Assembly: GCA_963699135.1 (NCBI GenBank)
Contig: OY969415.1
Coordinates: forward strand, 1,355,450-1,419,449
From: an uncultured Armatimonadetes bacterium
GTDB taxonomy: Bacteria > Armatimonadota > Hebobacteria > Hebobacterales > Hebobacteraceae
Length of the DNA: 64,000 nucleotides
Reading direction: 5' to 3'
Under the pieces are notes generated by a model. That model was given only the letters and a program-made list of their open reading frames with translations. It was not told where the DNA came from and did not search any database. This document shows, piece by piece, positions 13,006-61,786 of the stretch. How positions within the stretch are numbered: the stretch's first letter is position 1; each line of letters begins with the position of its first letter. A program made the position numbers and the translations under genes.

Positions 13006-13091
13006 GCCGGTGTGGCGGAATGGCAGACGCGCCTGACTCAAAATCAGGTGTCCGCAAGGGCATGGAGGTTCGACTCCTCTCACCGGCACCA
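13006..13091 (+). tRNA. tRNA-Leu (anticodon CAA), class II with a long variable arm and an encoded 3' CCA
   Basis: The sequence is GCCGGTGTGGCGGAATGGCAGACGCGCCTGACTCAAAATCAGGTGTCCGCAAGGGCATGGAGGTTCGACTCCTCTCACCGGCACCA. It has a 7-bp acceptor stem and the anticodon loop CTCAAAA. The T-arm is GGTTCGACTCC. Confidence 0.85.
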
Positions 13092-13754: not shown

Positions 13755-13965
13755 CGGTTGACCTAGCCCCCTACGAAACGCGAGCTCCGACGTCTAGGTC
13801 TCAACGGCCAGCGGGGACACAAGAAGGGGAACCAAAACCGGCTCAACGGAGCGGCTGGATGGTGCAGCGATACTACTTCGAATCGGGCCGCAAAGCAAGC
13901 CCTGGGGGGTGAACGATGGCCTGGCCACAGACTGCCGGAGCAGCGGGAACAGCAGGAACAGCGGA

Positions 13966-14030
13966 GGGGCTTCGGCAGTAGAACTACCGAAGGAGCGTGA
14001 GGGAGGGGCTTCGGCAGTAGAACTACCGAA
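13966..14030. repeat. Two tandem copies of the hairpin unit GGGGCTTCGGCAGTAGAACTACCGAAG (internal GTAG)
   Basis: The copies lie at 13966-13992 and 14004-14030. Related units (..tagaactaccgaagcaacgg..) recur at about 19585. Confidence 0.8.
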
Positions 14031-14626
14031 GCAACGGGGAGCCGCGGAAATGCACGCATGAAAAGTGGCGTTTTCGCAGATGCGGCGCGATGTTCCACGT
14101 GGAACATTTCGGGGATTTCCGGGGTGTTCACATTGACGGAATCGGAGGGTCGGGTGGGAGGCGGGCGGGAGAGAGGGGGTGAGGGGGCGGAGGGTGGGAA
14201 TTGGCGTAAGTAAGCAAGGTATTGATAGTACAAGAGGCAAGCTGAAATGGAGTCGATTTCCGTACGCGGGGATTTCGCGATTTGCCCTAGAAGGCGGCTG
14301 GATGGGTCCAGGAGAGGGGCGCGAAATGCGTCTCTTTCGCGGGAACGCCGTATTATGAGCTTTTTCGGGGGAGGGCCGGACTATTTCACGTAGGGCAAGC
14401 CAGAGGGGTCAGAGGGGAAGATAGGGGCATTTCGGGGTCTGAGGGGAGGTGCGCGCAGGGGGGCATAGGAGTGCACGAGATGCGTGGTTCGCGGGGCGAG
14501 ATGTGCGTGTTTTCGGTGGCTTTGGGCCGTGCATTTCGGGGGTGGGAAGGGGGCGGAATCGGGGTGTACTAAGGGGTTAGTACAGTGGGTTTGGGCATAG
14601 GCATAAGTGGAGGGAACGGGAACAGC

Positions 14627-14690
14627 ACGGCAACGGCGGTAACCGCAGATTACGCAGATTGCGCAGATTGGCGCCCGCCGATGGCGGGCG
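14627..14690. repeat. Repeat unit acggcaacggcRgtaaccgcagattacgcagattgcgcagatt followed by a GC hairpin. A second copy lies at 17978-18041.
   Basis: The two copies match exactly or nearly so. Each contains a 3x gcagatt mini-repeat and a hairpin (cgcccgccGATggcgggcg, or ggcccgccTAACggcgggc in the second copy). Confidence 0.8.
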
Positions 14691-14768
14691 AAACGGCAAG
14701 GGCGCTCTTGGGGGGGCGGAGGTGGGGGACGCGGGATCGCCGCCCTCCCGGCGGCGGGCGGGCAGGGA

Positions 14769-16091
14769 GGGCGTGATTCATTGTAAAGTAGCAAGACCTC
14801 CTTGACAGTCGTCTAGCAGGACATGGTTGACACTTTTGATCTGGGTAGTCGCAGCGCCAGCGCGCTGGTATCGCGGGTGCGCAAGTCCAGCTCCCGGATC
14901 GCCATCGCCCGGTAGCTGACCACCACCAGGTGTTCCACCTCCTCCACGCACACCGGCTCGCCCGCCAGCGCCTCGCACACAAACCAGCGTCGGCCCCGCC
15001 ACTTCAGGCACCCCTGGCTGTTGAGACGTTGCACCACTCCGGTGTCATAGACCCAGGGCGCTGGCTGCTCCCGGTAGGGCCGGAGCTTCTGGAACGAGTA
15101 GACCTGGCTGGGACACCGCATCCCCAGCGCCTCGTGGGGACGCGCCTGGTTGTACTCCCGGCGGAACCGCGGCGCCCCTTGCCGCCAGCTCTCCAGGTCC
15201 GGCGGCAGCCCCTCATGCCAGGTGCGCGCTTTCAGGGTGCGGTGGAAGCGCTCCACCTTCCCCCGGGTCTGGGGGTGTGAGGGTCGGCCGTAGAGGAGCT
15301 CGATATCCTGGTTCAGCAGCCACACGCTCAGCCGGGTCAGCCCGTAACCGTTGGTGGTCGACCACCACGGCGCCCCCCGATCCATCAGCAGCGCCTCCGG
15401 CACTCCCGGCTCCCGAAAGAGCCCTCCCAGCGCCTCCTGGACCCCCTCCAGCGCGACGCTGGGCAAGGGCCAGCGCCCCACCAGATAGCGGGAGTGATCA
15501 TCGATCAGGCTCAGCGGGTAGCACCAGCCCTGCGCCAGCGCATACTCTCCCTTGAAGTCCATCTGGTGCAGCTGGTTGGGCGCCTCCCGCACAAACCGCC
15601 CCTGCGCCTGGCCCCGTACCGGCCCCGCCATCAGTCGCCCTTGCCGGCGCAGAATCCGGTTGATACTCCACTCCGCCAACGGCACCCCTTCGCGCGCCAG
15701 CAGCACCTGCAACTTCCGGGCTCCCCACCCATACGCCTCCCGCAACGCCACCACCCGCGCCTCCAGTGCCGCTGGGGTCTGCGTCGGCGAACGCCGGGGC
15801 CGGCGGGAGCGCTCCTGCAGCCCGCCGCAGGAGCCACCCTCCTCCAACCGTCTCCGCCAGCCGTAGCCGGTCTGCCGGGAGATCCCGTACTCCGCACACA
15901 ACTGCGCAAAGGGAGCCACCCGCTGCTTCGCCCGCACCAGGAACTCAATGCGTTGATCCATGACACGCGTATCCTTCCAGGGCATGGGCCTCACCTCGCT
16001 GCTAGCAGACCCTTCCGCCCTCCCAAGTGTCAAGGATGTCCTGCTATATCAGTGTCAAGGATCTCATGCTACCGTACAATGAATCACGCCC
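14769..16091 (-). mobile_element. IS481-family insertion sequence (about 1.3 kb) with roughly 55-bp imperfect terminal inverted repeats, inserted into a REP-like hairpin
   Basis: The left end is gggcgtgatTCATTGTAAAGTAGCAAGACCTCCTTGACAGTCGTCTAGCAGGACATGGTTGACAC. The reverse complement of the right end is ..GTGTCAAGGATGTCCTGCTATATCAGTGTCAAGGATCTCATGCTACCGTACAATGAatcacgccc. The flanking halves gggcgtgat / gaatcacgccc together reconstitute the hairpin that is seen intact at 29853-29872. Confidence 0.75.
14813..16033 (-). CDS. IS481-family transposase (DDE/rve integrase with an N-terminal HTH)
   Basis: Intact 406-aa ORF. It has an N-terminal HTH (FAQLCAEYGISRQTGYGWRRR) and a DDE integrase core (..HQMDFKGEY..LIDDHSRY..). 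It also carries the IS481-like C-terminus (FHRTLKARTWHEG..YNQARPHEALG). Confidence 0.8.
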   Translation of the reverse strand: MTLGRAEGSASSEVRPMPWKDTRVMDQRIEFLVRAKQRVAPFAQLCAEYGISRQTGYGWRRRLEEGGSCGGLQERSRRPRRSPTQTPAALEARVVALREAYGWGARKLQVLLAREGVPLAEWSINRILRRQGRLMAGPVRGQAQGRFVREAPNQLHQMDFKGEYALAQGWCYPLSLIDDHSRYLVGRWPLPSVALEGVQEALGGLFREPGVPEALLMDRGAPWWSTTNGYGLTRLSVWLLNQDIELLYGRPSHPQTRGKVERFHRTLKARTWHEGLPPDLESWRQGAPRFRREYNQARPHEALGMRCPSQVYSFQKLRPYREQPAPWVYDTGVVQRLNSQGCLKWRGRRWFVCEALAGEPVCVEEVEHLVVVSYRAMAIRELDLRTRDTSALALRLPRSKVSTMSC

Positions 16092-16210
16092 CTACGTACG
16101 GCGACGGAACAGGAACGACGAGATTGCCACGCGCGCCTCGGCTCCGGTTGGAGCCGAGGCGGCTCGCAATGACAGAGATGGGCGGCAACGGCCGCCCCTC
16201 GCACTGAGAG
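16092..16210. repeat. Composite repeat built from units gattgccacg-[hairpin]-ctcgcaatgaca. Variants recur at about 19627-19682, 25056-25110, 29906-29965 and 18048-18100.
   Basis: Contains cgacgagattgccacgcgcgcctcggctccggttggagccgaggcggctcgcaatgacagagatgggcggcaacggccgcccctcgcactgagagcgg. The inner hairpins GGCTCC-GGTT-GGAGCC and GGGGCGGC-AACG-GCCGCCCC are enclosed by ATTGC/GCAAT. Confidence 0.75.
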
Positions 16211-17735: not shown

Positions 17736-17952
17736 TGACTGCCCGGCACGATTGTGCCGGGCAGGAGCCTGTTGGGGGACGACTGGCCGTTCGTCCCCCA
17801 AACCCCCTCACCGGCTTGTGGCGTCCTGACGAAAGCATGAGGTGGCAGCGAGGGGAGTGGGACGCCGCCCCTCGCAACGACAGCGGAGGAGGGAATGGCA
17901 GGACCAAGTCGCCGGAGGCGACCAAGGGTCCTGCCGAACGGGAACCTAGCCA
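17736..17952. repeat. About 215-bp composite repeat (copy 1 of 2; copy 2 at 29646-29847) made of several hairpin modules
   Basis: Modules: TGCCCGGCAC-GATT-GTGCCGGGCA, GGGGGACGA-ctggccg-TTCGTCCCCC and GGCAGGACC..AAGTCGCC-GGAG-GCGACT..GGTCCTGCC. The two copies are roughly 90% identical. Confidence 0.8.
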
Positions 17953-18178
17953 CCTGCGGCGGGAGAGTAACGGCGAAACGGCAACGGCAGTAACCGCAGA
18001 TTACGCAGATTGCGCAGATTAGGCCCGCCTAACGGCGGGCGGAGGGGTACGGTGAGATGGCCACGGGGCGGCAACGGCCGCCCGTCGCGATGCCACCCGC
18101 ACGCTGCGAGCGCGGGTGGCAGGCCGGGGTGATGGGTGTGGCGAAGACTGGGAGTATACCTTTGGGGACAGGGTGGCT

Positions 18179-19309: not shown

Positions 19310-19690
19310 GGGGAGGGAACGGCGTTCACCGCAGAGACGCAGAGGGCGCAGAGAACGGCAACGGCCTGCCCGCCAGTATCCTGGCGGGCAGAGCCCGCAA
19401 TTGGGGGCGACCGGCGATTCGCCCCCAAGCCCCCCACTCGCCTTTGGCGTTGCTGACAAGAGCGGAGGGTAGCAGCGAGAGAAGGTAGCAGAAGGCAAGT
19501 CACGGGAGGCGACGAGGGCTCCCGCCGAACGGGACCGCGGGGGCTTCGGCAGCCCCTAAGTCCGCCGTAGGCGGACCGGGGTGGCGGCACTTTGCCTAGC
19601 CATAGAACTACCGAAGCAACGGCAACGACGAGATTGCCACGGGGCAGCGGCAGGCCGCTGCCCCTCGCAATGACAGATAGGCGCGTTCAC
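19310..19690. repeat. Intergenic mosaic of hairpin repeats
   Basis: Contains CTGCCCGCCAG-tat-CCTGGCGGGCAG; GGGGGCGA-ccggcgat-TCGCCCCC (a compensatory variant of the 17775 module); GTCCGCC-GTAG-GCGGAC; and the unit gattgccacggggcagcggcaggccgctgcccctcgcaatgaca. Confidence 0.75.
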
Positions 19691-25039: not shown

Positions 25040-25150
25040 CAGAAACGGAGGGGGAGCACAACGGCGAGATTGCCACGGGGCGGCAACGGCCGCCCCTCGC
25101 AATGACAACTGGGGAAAGGCATGCCGGGGGCGTGCCTACGCGGGTTACCA
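25040..25150. repeat. Repeat units: gattgccacggggcggcaacggccgcccctcgcaatgacaactgggg, plus the hairpin GGCATGCC../GGCGTGCC-tacgcgggtt (related copy at 59825-59865)
   Basis: Direct sequence identity with the units at 16092-16210, 29906-29965 and 59825-59865. Confidence 0.75.
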
Positions 25151-29645: not shown

Positions 29646-29995
29646 CATTGCCCGGCACGATTGTGCCGGGCAGAAGCCTGCTGGGGGACGACTGGCCGTT
29701 CGTCCCCCAGACCCCCTCACCGGCTTCTGGCCTCCTGGCGGAAGTATGGGGTGGCAGCGGGAGCGATGAAGTAACGAGCGCAATGACAGTGAGGGGATGG
29801 CAGGACCAAGTCGCCGGAGGCGACTGGAGGTCCTGCCGAACGGGAGGAGGGAGGGCGTGATGAATCACGCCCCTACGGGAGGGGGTTCGGCAGCGAATTA
29901 CCGAAGCAGCCAACACCGAGATTGCCACGCACGCCCTGGCTCCGGTCGGAGCCAGGGCGGCTCGCAATGACAACTGGGGCGATGGGGAGAGTGCG
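29646..29995. repeat. Mosaic repeat block: copy 2 of the roughly 215-bp composite (29646-29847), an intact REP-like hairpin GGGCGTGAT-gaa-TCACGCCC-ctac (29853-29876), and gattgccacg..cgcaatgaca units (29906-29965)
   Basis: Direct identity with 17736-17952, with the IS flanks at 14769-14777 and 16081-16091, and with the unit at 16113-16160. Confidence 0.8.
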
Positions 29996-31589: not shown

Positions 31590-32411
31590 ATGCGCTACCT
31601 ACCACGCGAAGCCGCGCCCATCGGCGACGCAACCTGGGGGATGATCGAAGAGGCGGTGGTGGGGCCGGCGAAGATGCAGCTCGCGGGCCGACGGCTGCTC
31701 GACATCCAGGGGCCGTTCGGGCTCGGGATGAGAGTGCTGGACCACAAGGAACGGGAGACGGCGGCCGAGGCGAGCTTCGGCGACGCGAAGGCGAGGATGT
31801 CGGCGCCGGAGACGACGCCGATTCCGTTGATCTACTCGGAATTCACGCTGTCCATCCGCGAGATCGCGGCGGCGGAAGAGCGGGGCAGCCTGCTAGACCT
31901 CGATGCTCCCGCGAAGGCCGCCATCGCTTGCTCGCGGCTCGAAGACAATCTGATCTTCGGCGGCAACAAGGAGCTGCGGATCGATGGCCTGATGACCGCG
32001 CCGAAGGCGTCGAAGGTGAAGCTCGGCGACTGGGAGCAGATGGGCCAGCCGATGGAGGACCTGATCAAGGCCGCGAACGCGCTGGACGCGGCCGGCTTCC
32101 CGGGCCCCTACAGCGCGGCACTCGCGCCGTCGCTGTTCAACGCGCTCTACCGGCGGTATGAGGAGGCGAGCCTGACCCAGCTCGAGCACGCCCGGCAGTT
32201 GATCACGGGAGGCCTGGTGAAGGCGCCGACGCTGGCGTCGGGCGGTGTGGTGCTGGCGTCGCTGCGGCACTTCGCCTCGCTGGTGATCGGCCTGGACATG
32301 ACGCCGGCGTTCGTCGGGCCGACACCGACAGGCTACCAGTTCGTGATCATGGAGAGCATCACGCCCAGGATCACGGTGCCGGAAGCGATCTGCGTGCTGA
32401 CTGGGAAGTAG
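31590..32411 (+). CDS. Family 1 encapsulin nanocompartment shell protein (linocin M18-like, HK97 fold)
   Basis: 273 aa. It matches the Thermotoga encapsulin pattern: GRRLLDIQGPFGLG versus GRKFVDVEGPYGW, IPLIYSEFTLSIREI versus LPLIELRATFTL, EDNLIFGG versus EDEVIFRG, and GPYSAAL versus GPYTLV. An AAGGAGG ribosome-binding site lies 9 nt upstream of ATG 31590. The stop of the cargo gene overlaps this start region. Confidence 0.8.
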   Translation: MRYLPREAAPIGDATWGMIEEAVVGPAKMQLAGRRLLDIQGPFGLGMRVLDHKERETAAEASFGDAKARMSAPETTPIPLIYSEFTLSIREIAAAEERGSLLDLDAPAKAAIACSRLEDNLIFGGNKELRIDGLMTAPKASKVKLGDWEQMGQPMEDLIKAANALDAAGFPGPYSAALAPSLFNALYRRYEEASLTQLEHARQLITGGLVKAPTLASGGVVLASLRHFASLVIGLDMTPAFVGPTPTGYQFVIMESITPRITVPEAICVLTGK

Positions 32412-33210: not shown

Positions 33211-33991
33211 CTACTTCAGCCCGAAGAGTTTGGTGGCGTTGCCGCGGTTGACTCTCTCGCGGATCGCCGGGGAGGCGCCGACGGCGTCGAAGAGGGCGTC
33301 GTAGAACTTGAAGTAGGGCTGGAAGCCCTCGTTGTCTGTCTGAAGACACTGACGTCGCTGGCGAAGAGGAGCTTTGTTCAGGCTGGACTCGTCGAGGTTG
33401 CCGTTGGGGGCGAACATCTCTCGCCCACATCATGAGGGAGCGTTGGTAGGCGGTGCCGCCGCTGAGTTCGGCGTAGACGTTGGGCACGGACCACGTGATC
33501 TTCCAGGCTTCCTCCCACCAGGGGTTGCCGAAGTGGGCCATGAGGATCTTGAGGTCCGGGTGGCGGCGGCTCATGCAGTCGATGGCGGCCGGGGCGCATG
33601 AGGGTGATGTCGGTGTGGGCGGGCGGGCTCGAAGACGCCGATCCCCAGGTAGCCGGTGTGGAACATGGCGACTTTGCCCTTGGTCGGAGATGGCGGCGTA
33701 GAGCGGATCGTAGCGGGTGTCGCCGTAGGAGAACTGAGGGTCGATGAACTTGATGCCGGCGGCGCCGCCGTCGAGGATCTCGTTGATCTCCTTGACCGTG
33801 ATCTTGTCGATGTCGATCCAGGGAACGGGGATGATGAAGTCGGGCAGGGCCCGATAGGCCTCCATCGTCGGCTCGGGGTCCTGGATGAGGAGCACCCTTT
33901 CCACGCCCCGGTCGCGGCATTTCTTGACGTAATCCTGGGGCGATCCCTGGAGCTTCGAGAAGTCACCATGTACGTGCGCGTCGATTCGCAT
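33211..33991 (-). pseudogene. Amidohydrolase-2 family metal-dependent hydrolase (copy 1 of a tandem pair), with at least 3 frameshifts
   Basis: The N-terminus MRIDAHVHGDFSKLQGSPQDYVKKCRDRGVERVLLIQDPEPT..GIKFIDPQFSYGDTRYDPLYAAISDQG lies in ORF 32999-34102. The middle and C-terminal parts (KVAMFHTGYL.., PAAIDCMSRRHPDLKILMAHFGNPWWEEAWKITWSVPNVYAELSGGTAY.., ..NRGNATKLFGLK) lie in other frames. Confidence 0.6.
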
Positions 33992-34047
33992 TTCTGTCTC
34001 CCTGTATGAGTCACTAGGGGGCCCGAAGTGGGCCCGCGGCTTGTCGG

Positions 34048-34825
34048 TCAGGCGAGTCCGAACAGCTTGAGAGCAGTGCCCCGGTTGATCCGCTCCCGCC
34101 ACTCCGGCGAGGCGCCGATGGCATCGTAGACAGCGTCATAGAACTCGAAGTAATCCTCGAAGCCCTCGTGCTCCCTGAAGACGCTCATGTCGCTGGCGAA
34201 GAGGAGCTTCTTGAGGCTGTCCTCGTCGAGCACGCCATTGGGGGCGAAGGTCTCGGCCCACATGGAGATCGACCGCTTGTAGGCAGTGCCGCCGCTGAGC
34301 TCGGCGTAGACGTTGGGGACGGACCACATGATCTTCCAGGCCTCTTCCCACCAGGGGTTGCCGAAATGGGCCATGAGGATCCTGAGGTCGGGGTGACGGC
34401 GGCTCATGCAGTCGATGGCGGCGGGTCGCATGAGGGCGATATCGGTGGGGCGCGGCGGGCTCGGAGCGGCGGGCGAGGTAGCCGGTGTGGAACATGGCGA
34501 CTTTGCCCTTGGCGGAAATGGCGGCATAGAGTGGGTCGTAGCGCGTATCGCCATAGGAGAACTGGGGGTCGATGAACTTGATGCCGAGGGCGCCGGCGTC
34601 GATGATCTCGTTGATCTCGCGCACGGTGACCTTGTCGATGTCGACCCGCGGCACCGGGATGATGAAGTCGGGCAGGGCTTTGAAAGCGGCGAGGGTTGAG
34701 TCCGGCTCGGAGATCAGGACGACCTTCTCGATCCCCTGGGCGCGGCATTTCTTCACGTACTCCGCGGGCACGCCCTGGAACTTGCTGAAGTCGCCGTGAA
34801 TGTGGGCGTCGATACGCATATCCAT
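34048..34825 (-). CDS. Amidohydrolase-2 family metal-dependent hydrolase (copy 2, a paralog of 33211-33991), with 1-2 frameshifts near 34450-34500
   Basis: ORF 34136-34825 (MDMRIDAHIHGDFSKFQGVPAEYVKKCRAQGIEKVVLISEPDST..KGKVAMFHTGYLA) and ORF 34048-34554 (..ALMRPAAIDCMSRRHPDLRILMAHFGNPWWEEAWKIMWSVPNVYAELSGGTAYKRS..RINRGTALKLFGLA). It is roughly 80% identical to copy 1. Confidence 0.6.
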
Positions 34826-36201
34826 CTCAGCACCTCCGGAGTGAGATCAAACCGCGCGAGTAAATCGAATCCGGTCCCGCGCAACAACCTGTCAGGGATG
34901 GTTCCGCCCGCGCAGGGGTTTCCCTTTGTGGCGAAGGCGCTACTCGGCGTCGCGCAGGCCGGGGCGCGCCACCAGGAAACGGCGGCGGCGACGAGACAGA
35001 TGGCGCCGTCGATGGCGACGGCCCATCGCGGCCCCAGCCACTGGGCGGCGGCCCCGATCTGGAGGTTGCCCAGGGGTGACATGCCGGCGAAGACGAAGGC
35101 GCGCAGGCCCATCACTCTCCCGCGAAGCTCATCGGGAGGGGATTTCTGCAGGATGGTGTTCGAGGTGGTGTTGAACGACATCATGCCGAGGCCGACGAAG
35201 AAGAGAAAGGCGACGGCGATGGAGTAGGAGGAGGCGCTGGCGAGGAGCATGAGGCCGATGGGGAAGACGAAGGAGCCGAGGACGGTGATGGCGCCGATGC
35301 GGAAGCGGTGCCCGATGGCGGTCATAGTCATGGCGGCGAGGAGGGAGCCGAAGGCCGGGGCGGACATGAGGAACCCGTATCCCCGGGGGCCGGTGTGGAA
35401 GACTTCCTGGGCGAAGAGGGGCATGAGGGTGGCGTAGGGCATGGCGAAGAGGCTGGAGAACCCGGTGAGGATGAGCAGGGCCTTGGCGACAGGCTGGCTG
35501 CGCACCCACTTCACGCCGCCGCCGATGTGCTCGAACATGGAGCCGGACATGCGGGGGCGAGGGGGCCGGGGGGTGATGGTGGTGAGGATGACGATCAGGG
35601 GCAGGAAAGAGATGGCGTTGATGAGGAAGCAGCCGGCCATCCCGGCGGCGGCGAGCAGGATCCCCGCGACCGAAGGCCCGATTACCCGGCCGGAGTTGAA
35701 GGCGGACGAGTTGAGGGCGACGGCGTTGAAAATGTCCTCTCGCTCCACCAGGTCCATCACCATGGACTGACGGGTGGGCATGTCGAAGGCGTTGATGACG
35801 CCGAGGAGGGCGGCAAGGGTCATCACGTGCCAGACGCGCACCGTGTCGGTGTAGACGAGGAGCGCGAGGACGCCCGCCTGGAGGGCGGCCAGGCTCTGGG
35901 TGATGAAGACGATGCGGTGCTTGCTGAAGCGATCGGCAACGACCCCGGCAGGAAGGGAGAGCAGCAGAATGGGAAACGCGCCGCAGGCGCCGACGAGGCC
36001 GAGGTAGAGGGGTGACTTAGTGAGCTGGTAGACCAGCCACCCCTGGGCCGCGTTCTGCATCCAGGTGCCGGTGACGGAGAGGACGAGGCCGATCCAGAAT
36101 CGGCGGAAGTCGCGATGGCGCAGCGAACGCAGGGCCATCGGCCACCGCGTCTGGCGCGCTTCCTCTGCGATCTCCGGAGGGACCTGGAACTCGTCAGCCA
36201 C
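34753..36201 (-). CDS. MFS transporter (EntS/YbdA-like 12-TM)
   Basis: Mostly hydrophobic 12-TM protein with ..DFRRFWIGLVLSVTGTWM.. and ..AGVVADRFSKHRI... The last roughly 70 aa overlap the adjacent amidohydrolase gene. They may be a frameshift artefact. Confidence 0.65.
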   Translation of the reverse strand: MADEFQVPPEIAEEARQTRWPMALRSLRHRDFRRFWIGLVLSVTGTWMQNAAQGWLVYQLTKSPLYLGLVGACGAFPILLLSLPAGVVADRFSKHRIVFITQSLAALQAGVLALLVYTDTVRVWHVMTLAALLGVINAFDMPTRQSMVMDLVEREDIFNAVALNSSAFNSGRVIGPSVAGILLAAAGMAGCFLINAISFLPLIVILTTITPRPPRPRMSGSMFEHIGGGVKWVRSQPVAKALLILTGFSSLFAMPYATLMPLFAQEVFHTGPRGYGFLMSAPAFGSLLAAMTMTAIGHRFRIGAITVLGSFVFPIGLMLLASASSYSIAVAFLFFVGLGMMSFNTTSNTILQKSPPDELRGRVMGLRAFVFAGMSPLGNLQIGAAAQWLGPRWAVAIDGAICLVAAAVSWWRAPACATPSSAFATKGNPCAGGTIPDRLLRGTGFDLLARFDLTPEVLRWICVSTPTFTATSASSRACPRST

Positions 36202-59741: not shown

Positions 59742-59789
59742 GGGTTCCGGGAAGGCGCGGGTTCGGGGTCGGAGATCCCGGGGTAGGGG

Positions 59790-59870
59790 CGCAACTGGTT
59801 GAATCACGCCCCTACGTACGGAGGGAGAGGCACGCCGTGGGCGTGCCTACGCGGGTTGCGGCGGTGCCCG
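59790..59870. repeat. REP-like units: gaatcacgcccctacgtacgg (identical to the IS right flank at 16081-16101) and the hairpin GGCACGCC-GTG-GGCGTGCC-tacgcgggtt (copy of 25123-25150)
   Basis: Exact 21-nt match to 16081-16101, and near-identity to 25123-25150. Confidence 0.75.
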
Positions 59871-61000: not shown

Positions 61001-61147
61001 CCCGGACCTTAGGCAGTCAGATGCGGGGTTGCGTCGTCGGGTTGCTGCCGGAAGAAGGCGGGCAAGCCCCCACCCTATGTGAGGTTGGAGGATAGAGATA
61101 GATCCCCCCCACCCGGGGTGGGCGCAGGGCGGGAAGGGTGGCGTTAG

Positions 61148-61175
61148 CCCGTAGGGCAGGAGCTTGTCTCCTGCC
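61148..61175 (+). repeat. REP element, 5' copy flanking the RAYT gene: GTAG tetranucleotide plus hairpin GGCAGGAG-cttgt-CTCCTGCC
   Basis: cccGTAGggcaggagcttgtctcctgcc. The exact reverse complement occurs at 61690-61717. Confidence 0.8.
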
Positions 61176-61192
61176 ACTGAACCTGAGACGCT

Positions 61193-61675: not shown

Positions 61676-61689
61676 GGGGAAGGAGGGAT

Positions 61690-61717
61690 GGCAGGAGACA
61701 AGCTCCTGCCCTACGGG
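61690..61717 (-). repeat. REP element, 3' copy flanking the RAYT gene (inverted relative to 61148-61175)
   Basis: ggcaggagacaagctcctgccctacggg is the exact reverse complement of 61148-61175. Confidence 0.8.
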
Positions 61718-61786
61718 CCTATGCGCAGGCCGCCATCCCGGCCGCCGATGGTGGCCTAGGGACTCCTGCCCAACGGGCTCACCCCC

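Follow-up and report, generated by a model that had tools for sequence, protein, structure and literature searches.

An IS481-type insertion sequence in a split REP hairpin of an uncultured Armatimonadetes bacterium

The insertion sequence and its borders

We analyzed a stretch of 64,000 nucleotides (the window) from an uncultured Armatimonadetes bacterium (GenBank assembly GCA_963699135.1, contig OY969415.1, positions 1,355,450 to 1,419,449 of the forward strand). An insertion sequence (IS) lies in it between the two halves of a hairpin of the repetitive extragenic palindrome (REP) type, about 120 nt downstream of a DUF4832 gene. An earlier reading made from the letters alone (the sequence-only reading) had called the element an IS481-family IS that either targets, or was captured within, a REP-like palindrome. 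Our analysis favors targeting: very probably, an intact IS481-family IS has inserted by transposition at the apex of a REP hairpin with a GTAG foot, a position that is characteristic of its transposase lineage. We prefer targeting to capture because an orthologous empty site exists and because relatives with 46% to 91% amino acid identity are found at the same hairpin position in both orientations. The coordinates of the features, all given as window positions, are collected in Table 1; the loci used for comparison carry L numbers.

Table 1. Window coordinates of the insertion sequence, the REP copies and a second repeat family
Feature	Position	Strand	Remarks
Insertion sequence, 1297 bp	14782..16078	- (transposase strand)	5'-TGTAAAG...CCGTACA-3' on the + strand; independent copies lose similarity exactly there
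Transposase coding sequence, 390 aa from the more likely start (ATG at 15985)	14813..15985	-	P0001 100% identical; mechanical open reading frame from TTG at 16033, 406 aa
Terminal inverted repeat, gene 3' end, 54 nt	14782..14835	+	two 19-nt subterminal repeats of the form TAGCAnGAnnTCCTTGACA
Terminal inverted repeat, gene 5' end, 54 nt	16025..16078	-	the same two 19-nt subterminal repeats TAGCAnGAnnTCCTTGACA
Foot-distal REP half	14769..14781	-	GGGCGTG arm + ATTCAT (6 extra nt, reverse complement of the expected ATGAAT)
Foot-proximal REP half	16079..16095	-	ATGAAT (native loop + closing pair) + CACGCCC arm + CTAC (GTAG foot on the - strand)
Unoccupied copy of this REP subfamily	29853..29876	-	GTAG-GGGCGTG-ATTCAT-CACGCCC; 8-bp stem, tetraloop TTCA
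Third REP-like copy	59783..59815	-	shares the 21-nt GAATCACGCCCCTACGTACGG, other partner arm: GTAGGGGCG-15 nt-CGCCCCTAC; -11.5 kcal/mol, z -2.95
Copies of the GAGATTGCCAC family	16120-16174, 19630-19675, 25066-25107, 29918-29972	+	

The sequence-only reading had given the transposase 406 residues. That open reading frame (ORF) exists as a mechanical frame beginning at a TTG, but the ATG listed in Table 1 is the more likely start, and the version in a public protein collection (P0001) has 390 residues as well. A domain search returned matches to HTH_23/28/29/32 at approximately residues 26-128 and an rve/rve_3 core at 150-308 within one ORF. The helix-turn-helix and rve regions are thereby carried in a single frame, as in the IS481 family, without the orfA/orfB frameshift of the IS3 type. 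The best NCBIfam model was NF033577 (IS481), with E 6.7e-64 and 216.1 bits at a cut-off of 224, aligned over profile positions 1-284 of 284. The runner-up family, IS3, was far behind at 109.5 bits, in agreement with the family proposed earlier. Homologues at 55% and at 37-40% identity carry the NCBI name IS481 family transposase, and the nearest annotated plasmid-borne members of the family reach at most about 42% amino acid identity. D143, D202 and E245, together with K252 seven residues further on, were invariant in nine homologues and have DD(35)E-K spacing; by their motif position, the first three are putative DDE catalytic residues. Judged from its sequence, the element appears intact and its transposase of the IS481 type, which these findings support.

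The borders of the element were set by comparison with copies from metagenomes, namely L001/L082 (91% amino acid identity), L002/L111 (86%), L085/L086 (80%), L083 and L084 (both 78%), L112 (76%) and L003 (69%). Similarity to the window ended at TGTACGG... on the 5' side of the gene and at ...CTTTACA on its 3' side in all compared copies. Contig L112 consists of G + TGTACGG...CTTTACA, that is, of the whole IS unit plus one base only. The ends TGTAAAG... and TGTACGG... and the size of 1297 bp fit the IS481 family, whose members have repeats starting with 5'-TGT and measure about 1-1.3 kb. The GC content of the IS is 67.4%, compared with 66.7% for the window.

The imperfect inverted repeats, put at roughly 55 bp before, measure 54 nt and match at 43 of 54 positions; the 19-nt subterminal repeats occupy repeat positions 8-26 and 33-51. 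A repeat search reported a longer inverted repeat of 67 nt (84%), with arms at 14769-14835 and 16025-16091. This repeat is composed of the 54-nt IS repeat and, on each side, 13 nt of perfectly palindromic target. The strings GGGCGTGAT (14769-14777) and GAATCACGCCC (16081-16091), between which the sequence-only reading had placed the IS, are present at these positions, but TCAT (14778-14781) and AT (16079-16080) had been wrongly assigned to the IS. An annotation rule for such GC-rich genomes would be that the IS stops at TGT...ACA and that palindromic bases outside belong to the host REP.

Occupied and empty REP sites

The 20-nt sequence GGGCGTGATGAATCACGCCC occurs uninterrupted at 29853-29872, and the flank GAATCACGCCCCTACGTACGG occurs again at 59795-59815; both the unoccupied copy and the shared flank had been pointed out before and were recovered here. 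The 15-mer GAATCACGCCCCTAC has exactly three occurrences in the window. Seven occurrences were counted for the 9-mer GGGCGTGAT where 0.99 was expected. Its matches at 32358 and 37784 were rejected as REP halves; they look like chance, because they lie within long ORFs and lack a partner arm. The three copies of this REP subfamily in the 64-kb window all lie outside long ORFs, with the foot always on the - strand. Homologous REP copies are also found in L002/L111, and in L113 the REP falls within the 360 nt that separate two called genes.

Read from its foot, the hairpin is GTAG-GGGCGTGA-TTCA-TCACGCCC, and its predicted fold has -9.7 kcal/mol (z -4.6; 0/200 shuffles fold as well). The hallmark of REPs is a GTAG foot followed by an imperfect palindrome (PMC3333891, PMC2817692). 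The hairpin has this 5' GTAG foot and an imperfect palindrome able to form a stem-loop, and its format agrees with published REPs, for example GTAGGGTGGGTCTTGACCCACC; the REP-like character that had been suggested by its ctac/GTAG tetranucleotide therefore holds. GTAG repeats are on record for Planctomycetes and Chloroflexi (PMC3733652). Rfam contained no family matching the hairpins, and a tRNA gene at 13006-13088 was the sole match in the window at the gathering threshold.

The DUF4832 gene next to the split REP has a 93%-identical orthologue on contig L113. This contig aligns to the window with 88.8% nucleotide identity over 1915 nt, stopping inside the REP loop, and it has the hairpin GTAGGGGCGTGATTCATCACGCCC uninterrupted, reading CGTAGGGGCGTG-ATTCAT-CACGCCCTCCC. 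Homology resumes beyond this point (window 14627-14705 versus L113:2414-2491), so both flanks of the IS are contiguous in the relative. The foot-proximal half of the split REP is identical to 29859-29876 and, on the opposite strand, to L113:2334-2350. When joined, the flanks of the IS read GGGCGTG-ATTCAT + ATGAAT-CACGCCC, which are the 20 nt of the hairpin and 6 nt more (26 nt). The flanks thus rejoin into the same hairpin, as had been proposed, but with 6 nt left over. A four-way alignment of the window flanks, the L002 flanks, L113 and window 29776-29930 showed that both occupied sites equal the two empty ones plus exactly 6 nt; such an alignment of occupied and empty sites had been suggested as a check by the sequence-only reading, and the IS coordinates as recounted in it are those of Table 1. 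Both flanks in L002 are homologous to one continuous composite element, which is empty in L113 and at 29776-29877.

The flanks lose their symmetry beyond 13 nt: one reads GGGAGGG there and the opposite one CCCCTAC, which is the GTAG foot seen from the other strand. The GTAG foot adjoins the 5' end of the gene in the window and its 3' end in L002, and the arm on the GGGAGGG side is placed conversely. The arms themselves diverge between the window and L002 (GGGCGTG/GGGCGGG and CACGCCC/CCTGCCC), whereas the adjacent 28-50 nt of the IS are identical. Because of this swap in orientation, the orthologous empty site, the alignment with 6 added nucleotides and the divergence of the arms beside identical IS ends, the flanking palindromic bases are target and not IS. 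The existence of empty sites, orthologous as well as paralogous, and the swapped orientation in L002 support a place for the case among type 1 REP-IS associations (Tobes & Pareja 2006). The REP is missing from the same locus in the more distant relatives L114-L117, which is expected of a mobile repeat. The relative with 91% amino acid identity (L001/L082) shows GTTCAT after TACA, not ATGAAT.

The six added bases have an unexpected arrangement. On the + strand, the loop of the empty REP reads ATGAAT and the occupied site reads ATTCAT-IS-ATGAAT. The copy on the foot side is native. Where a direct repeat of it would be expected, the foot-distal side has its reverse complement, which is identical to the native copy at four of six positions and differs at the two middle bases. 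The same flipped junction is present in L002 and L111 (two assemblies) with the IS in the other orientation, and loop-flipped flanks are likewise seen in L013 (AC-TCC-GT-IS-AC-GGA-GT) and L094. Staggered cutting followed by gap filling does not account for the flipped copy, because it cannot invert a copy.

A series of other sources was considered and rejected. Alternative IS borders, whether shifted symmetrically by 1-6 nt or placed asymmetrically, gave no direct repeat beyond AT, or gave TGA/TCA with absurd ends. Recombination between IS copies or an assembly error is excluded for the window copy by the contiguous orthologue L113, and reciprocal IS-IS recombination or a chimeric assembly would place GTAG on both sides or on neither. 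The remaining candidates fail on reasoning: cuts with a 3' stagger produce no duplication; attack on extruded cruciform loops concerns the same bonds as in B-DNA and yields a direct repeat; attack of both IS ends on one strand of a single-stranded hairpin leaves a broken strand; fold-back priming, or a primer swap between identical arms, leads to chromosome arms that end in hairpins; and resolving a cruciform by opening its hairpins symmetrically yields copies that are direct, as does an inversion between the 7-bp arms.

That the flipped loop copy is a genuine integration product and not a later change, as it would be in at least three insertions with single-locus flanks (the window, L002/L111 and L013; possibly L094), is a tentative proposal that we consider rather unlikely. 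Two routes to it can be imagined. A 5' flap of donor-derived spacer might anneal in the target gap and be ligated, and 6 nt of the previous REP would then be carried along with each insertion. Alternatively, the transposase might favor a loop-mismatched or extruded target, whose two strands would give different copies. Another candidate source of the flipped copy is a short conversion tract from another REP::IS copy. To our knowledge, neither flap carry-over nor joining at a mismatched or extruded loop has been described for the IS481 transposase family. If the flip does arise during integration, it would bear on the repair of target gaps and would point to an unusual joining of this IS481 lineage to the hairpin.

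Insertion position in relatives and rival explanations

An alignment-based scan of genome contigs yielded relatives of 55% identity or less only; a contig scan with the single transposase protein as query found nothing. The chromosome of a Bryobacterales metagenome-assembled genome (MAG), OZ253444.1, was found to carry 10 copies of a 46%-identical relative. Eight of the 10 are flanked as GGGCACG-GCATGC-IS-GCATGC-CGTGCCC, and a GTAG REP half is present at the junction in nine. The GTAG foot is on one side only, upstream of the gene in five copies and downstream in the other five. Empty REPs occur near these copies (L100:3375 and L098:2941), one of which reads GTAGGGGCACGGCATGCCGTGCCC; because this empty site lies nearby, the target duplication can be read as the 6-bp GCATGC. 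In one further copy the occupied REP is a variant and the duplication, CCCCTGTG, has 8 bp; this variant, too, has an empty example nearby.

Statistics for the clade were taken from the 44 loci for which both junctions were available, that is, from 88 flanks. In 35 of these flanks the motif GT[AG]GG is separated from the IS end by 16-21 nt, most often by 17-18 nt, compared with 3.9% of background windows; 27 of the 44 loci have it at this distance. Flank pairs sharing at least 6 nt of perfect complementarity amounted to 35/44, versus 20/193 among controls. Perfect direct repeats of 6-10 bp were seen in L007, L020, L033, L034, L042, L046, L085, L086 and L089. L085 and L086 reconstruct to one 23-nt empty site with duplications of 8 bp and 7 bp, respectively, and must be separate events, since the duplication lengths differ at the same empty site. 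For 16 empty sites that were reconstructed and folded, the duplicated bases (6-10 bp) cover the predicted hairpin loop in every case. The duplication is centered on the apex in 14 of them and consists of the loop (3-5 nt) and one to three closing pairs per side; the exceptions are L085, which is off by 1 bp, and L100, whose predicted loop has 12 nt and contains the duplication at its 5' end. The hosts of the relatives include Acidobacteriota and Chloroflexota (Anaerolineales) MAGs.

The insertion thus added 6 bp, which correspond to the tetraloop and its closing base pair. Relatives down to about 46% identity enter short GC-rich hairpins, for the most part GTAG REPs, at the dyad axis and in both orientations, and duplicate the loop with one to three closing pairs (6-10 bp). 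The borders, the empty orthologous site, the 6 added bp, the independence of orientation and the position common to the clade are observed, and the following mechanism can be proposed for them. A transpososome of two-fold symmetry may align on the palindrome, either as B-DNA or as an extruded hairpin, and by extension from IS481 on its target NCTAGN the staggered cuts may be symmetric about the dyad. The REPs would serve as harmless landing sites.

Several points weigh against this reading. The NF033577 score of the transposase is 8 bits below the curated cut-off. The two 6-bp copies in the window are not a direct repeat, and simple staggered-cut integration predicts otherwise. The GT[AG]GG foot is absent in 17 of the 44 loci, and some targets are hairpins without GTAG, terminator-like in L042 and of the GAGATTGCCAC family in L013; the recognized feature may therefore be any short GC-rich palindrome and not REPs as such. 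In the closest relative, L001/L082, the IS is found 14 nt away from a REP that is complete, possibly in a second hairpin, and the available sequence of the other flank covers 3 nt (GAT). The 64-kb window offers one copy of the IS and three of the REP, so that specificity throughout the genome of this organism is a presumption. Finally, most comparison loci are short metagenome contigs, and many of them were assembled from short reads, a procedure that can join unrelated sequences at a repeat.

Apart from transposition, the IS might have spread from REP to REP by short-homology recombination or gene conversion, as a cassette arm-loop-IS-loop'-arm that could be exchanged in either orientation since the arms are palindromic. 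Such a route would account for the identical, non-direct junction ATTCAT-IS-ATGAAT that is found in opposite orientations in the window and L002, and REP-REP recombination is documented in E. coli, according to work cited in PMC1525189. Even so, we consider this route improbable. The homology on offer is merely about 7-17 nt per side, and the clean direct repeats of 6-10 bp in relatives, which differ from site to site, are a signature of transposition. The length of the duplication also differs between L085 and L086 at the same target sequence, and the origin of the first palindromic junction is left unaccounted for.

Somewhat less probable still is that an IS without target preference hit, by chance, one of many intergenic hairpins in a repeat-rich genome. 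The intergenic regions of the window are indeed mosaics of several hairpin families, so that hairpins form a sizeable part of the non-essential DNA, and the window offers a single IS copy. The data from the clade, however, contradict chance. The insertion is at the exact apex, and of 44 related loci, which come from several phyla, 27 show the same position, the foot being at 17-18 nt; so do 9 of 10 copies on one chromosome. Two independent insertions have used the same bond in the same REP subfamily, and L085 and L086 share a 23-nt empty site with 8-bp and 7-bp duplications.

The least probable view, to which we give hardly any credence, makes the palindromic arms part of the IS (as a 67-nt repeat or a 1309-bp unit that includes ATTCAT/ATGAAT) and the intact hairpin a footprint, a pair of solo ends or a tiny miniature inverted-repeat transposable element: the inverted repeat runs through the 13-nt flanks without a mismatch, ATTCAT-IS-ATGAAT is identical in the window and L002/L111, and L022, L025 and L029, of another lineage, may truly include their shared inverted flanks, but the orthologous locus in L113, neighbor gene included, has the hairpin without the IS, the arms differ between the window and L002 next to identical IS ends, the asymmetric outer flanks change sides relative to the gene, L001/L082 has GTTCAT in place of ATGAAT after TACA, contig L112 terminates at TGT...ACA, and the flanks of other relatives are quite different and contain clean direct repeats.

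Three loci with one related IS (L022, L025 and L029) have inverted flanks, GGATTCGGCACCTGAGG, whose identity extends over all 17 nt in L025 and L029 and over 15 nt in L022; a direct repeat is absent. Either the true ends of this lineage lie further out or one very uniform palindrome was occupied. At the DNA level, the IS copies of L002 and the window share 89.6% identity, and the DUF4832 gene of the same sample (Ga0315288, L117) shares only 76.6% with that of the window. If L002 and L117 represent one organism, the IS would be better conserved than this gene of its host, a hint that it has passed between relatives. Close homologues of the DUF4832 gene that neighbors the split REP are named Planctomycetota, and DUF1559/N-methyl genes are present on L001; taken by themselves, these two observations would make a planctomycete host probable.

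A protein search with the ORF that reads from the IS end across the junction, which might have revealed further junctions, gave no candidates. To the left of the IS, about 1 kb (13763-14768) is without a convincing ORF. The gene that follows the REP in L113 (2589-3077, a hydrophobic fragment of 163 aa) has no counterpart anywhere in the window; there is therefore a break of synteny beside the IS.

The window contains further repeats. A second intergenic family has the form GAGATTGCCAC(G), a variable GC-rich hairpin and CTCGCAATGAC(A); L002 and L113 have it as well, and one of its hairpins is occupied at the apex by a relative of the IS with 53% identity (L013). A block of approximately 205 nt with several hairpin modules occurs at 17740-17943 and 29649-29845 (83% identity). 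Because the second copy of this block abuts the empty REP, the intergenic regions can be regarded as mosaics akin to bacterial interspersed mosaic elements (BIMEs). Three tandem 9-mers, CGCAGATT(A/G), lie at 14644-14670 and 17995-18021, within a 65-nt repeat (14627-14690 and 17978-18041, 91% identity), and are conserved in L113 and L002; by its appearance, this array looks like a protein-binding site. Two adjacent 780-nt segments (33218-34000 and 34055-34828; 80% identity) are probably tandem paralogous genes on the - strand. A perfect inverted repeat of 30 nt has its arms at 61147-61176 and 61689-61718, about 510 nt apart, and L085 matches both arms over 26-29 nt.

Comparison with known REP-associated elements

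A survey published in 2006 lists IS3, IS110, IS4, IS256 and IS5 as the IS families associated with REPs, the associations of IS256 and IS5 being looser; IS481 is not listed (PMC1525189). In the searched literature on the IS481 family and REP or extragenic elements, judged mainly by titles and abstracts and with ISfinder left aside, no report of REP targeting was apparent.

For two of the surveyed elements, ISPsy8 and ISRm22, the insertion point coincides with the axis of symmetry (PMC1525189). ISPsy8, IS1397 and ISKpn1 (IS3 family; Pseudomonas syringae, E. coli and Klebsiella) resemble the present element in that they have a DDE (rve) transposase of the sister family of IS481 and split REPs, which holds for every copy of theirs (PMC1525189). 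ISPsy8, whose insertions come with a short direct repeat, further shares the insertion at the symmetry axis, the use of either REP orientation and the position of the REP pieces outside the IS repeats (PMC1525189). Unlike these three, which have two ORFs with a frameshift, duplications of 3-4 bp and proteobacterial hosts, the element described here has a single 390-aa ORF of the IS481 type, an addition of 6 bp (6-10 bp in relatives) and relatives in Acidobacteriota and Chloroflexota (Anaerolineales) MAGs. ISRm22 (IS4 family), which occupies the REPs of Sinorhizobium meliloti, is similar in its insertion at the palindrome axis; its direct repeats have 6 bp, the length of the addition seen here, and are imperfect in three of nine copies (PMC1525189). 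Its transposase, however, belongs to an unrelated family, and its imperfect repeats were put down to recombination between copies, which L113 excludes for the window copy.

The IS110-family elements ISPpu9, ISPpu10, ISPa11, ISRm19 and IS621 likewise occupy REPs, theirs being a specificity of nearly 100% (PMC1525189, PMC12288879). They differ in having a DEDD recombinase, no terminal inverted repeats, off-center insertion and direct repeats of 0-2 bp.

IS481 of Bordetella pertussis and ISLxc2 of Leifsonia share with our element a single-ORF DDE transposase, repeats that start with TGT and a size of about 1.0-1.3 kb (PMC3053399, PMC2516522). Both also duplicate 6 bp of a target with a palindromic core, NCTAGN (PMC3053399, PMC2516522), and the ends of ISLxc2 begin with TGTGTTT. 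The difference is that their target is a 6-bp motif, whereas here it is the apex of a hairpin of 20-24 nt, and that each end carries paired 19-nt subterminal repeats here.

Taken together, the findings give good support to the view that this is an ordinary case of a known phenomenon in a new IS family and host range, with a clean pair of occupied and empty sites and one reproducible anomaly. It would add the IS481 family to those that use REP hairpins as landing sites and extend the behavior over a whole transposase clade, including members in Acidobacteriota and Chloroflexota (Anaerolineales). The occupied and empty sites form a natural set for asking how a DDE transposase reads a hairpin or a palindrome.

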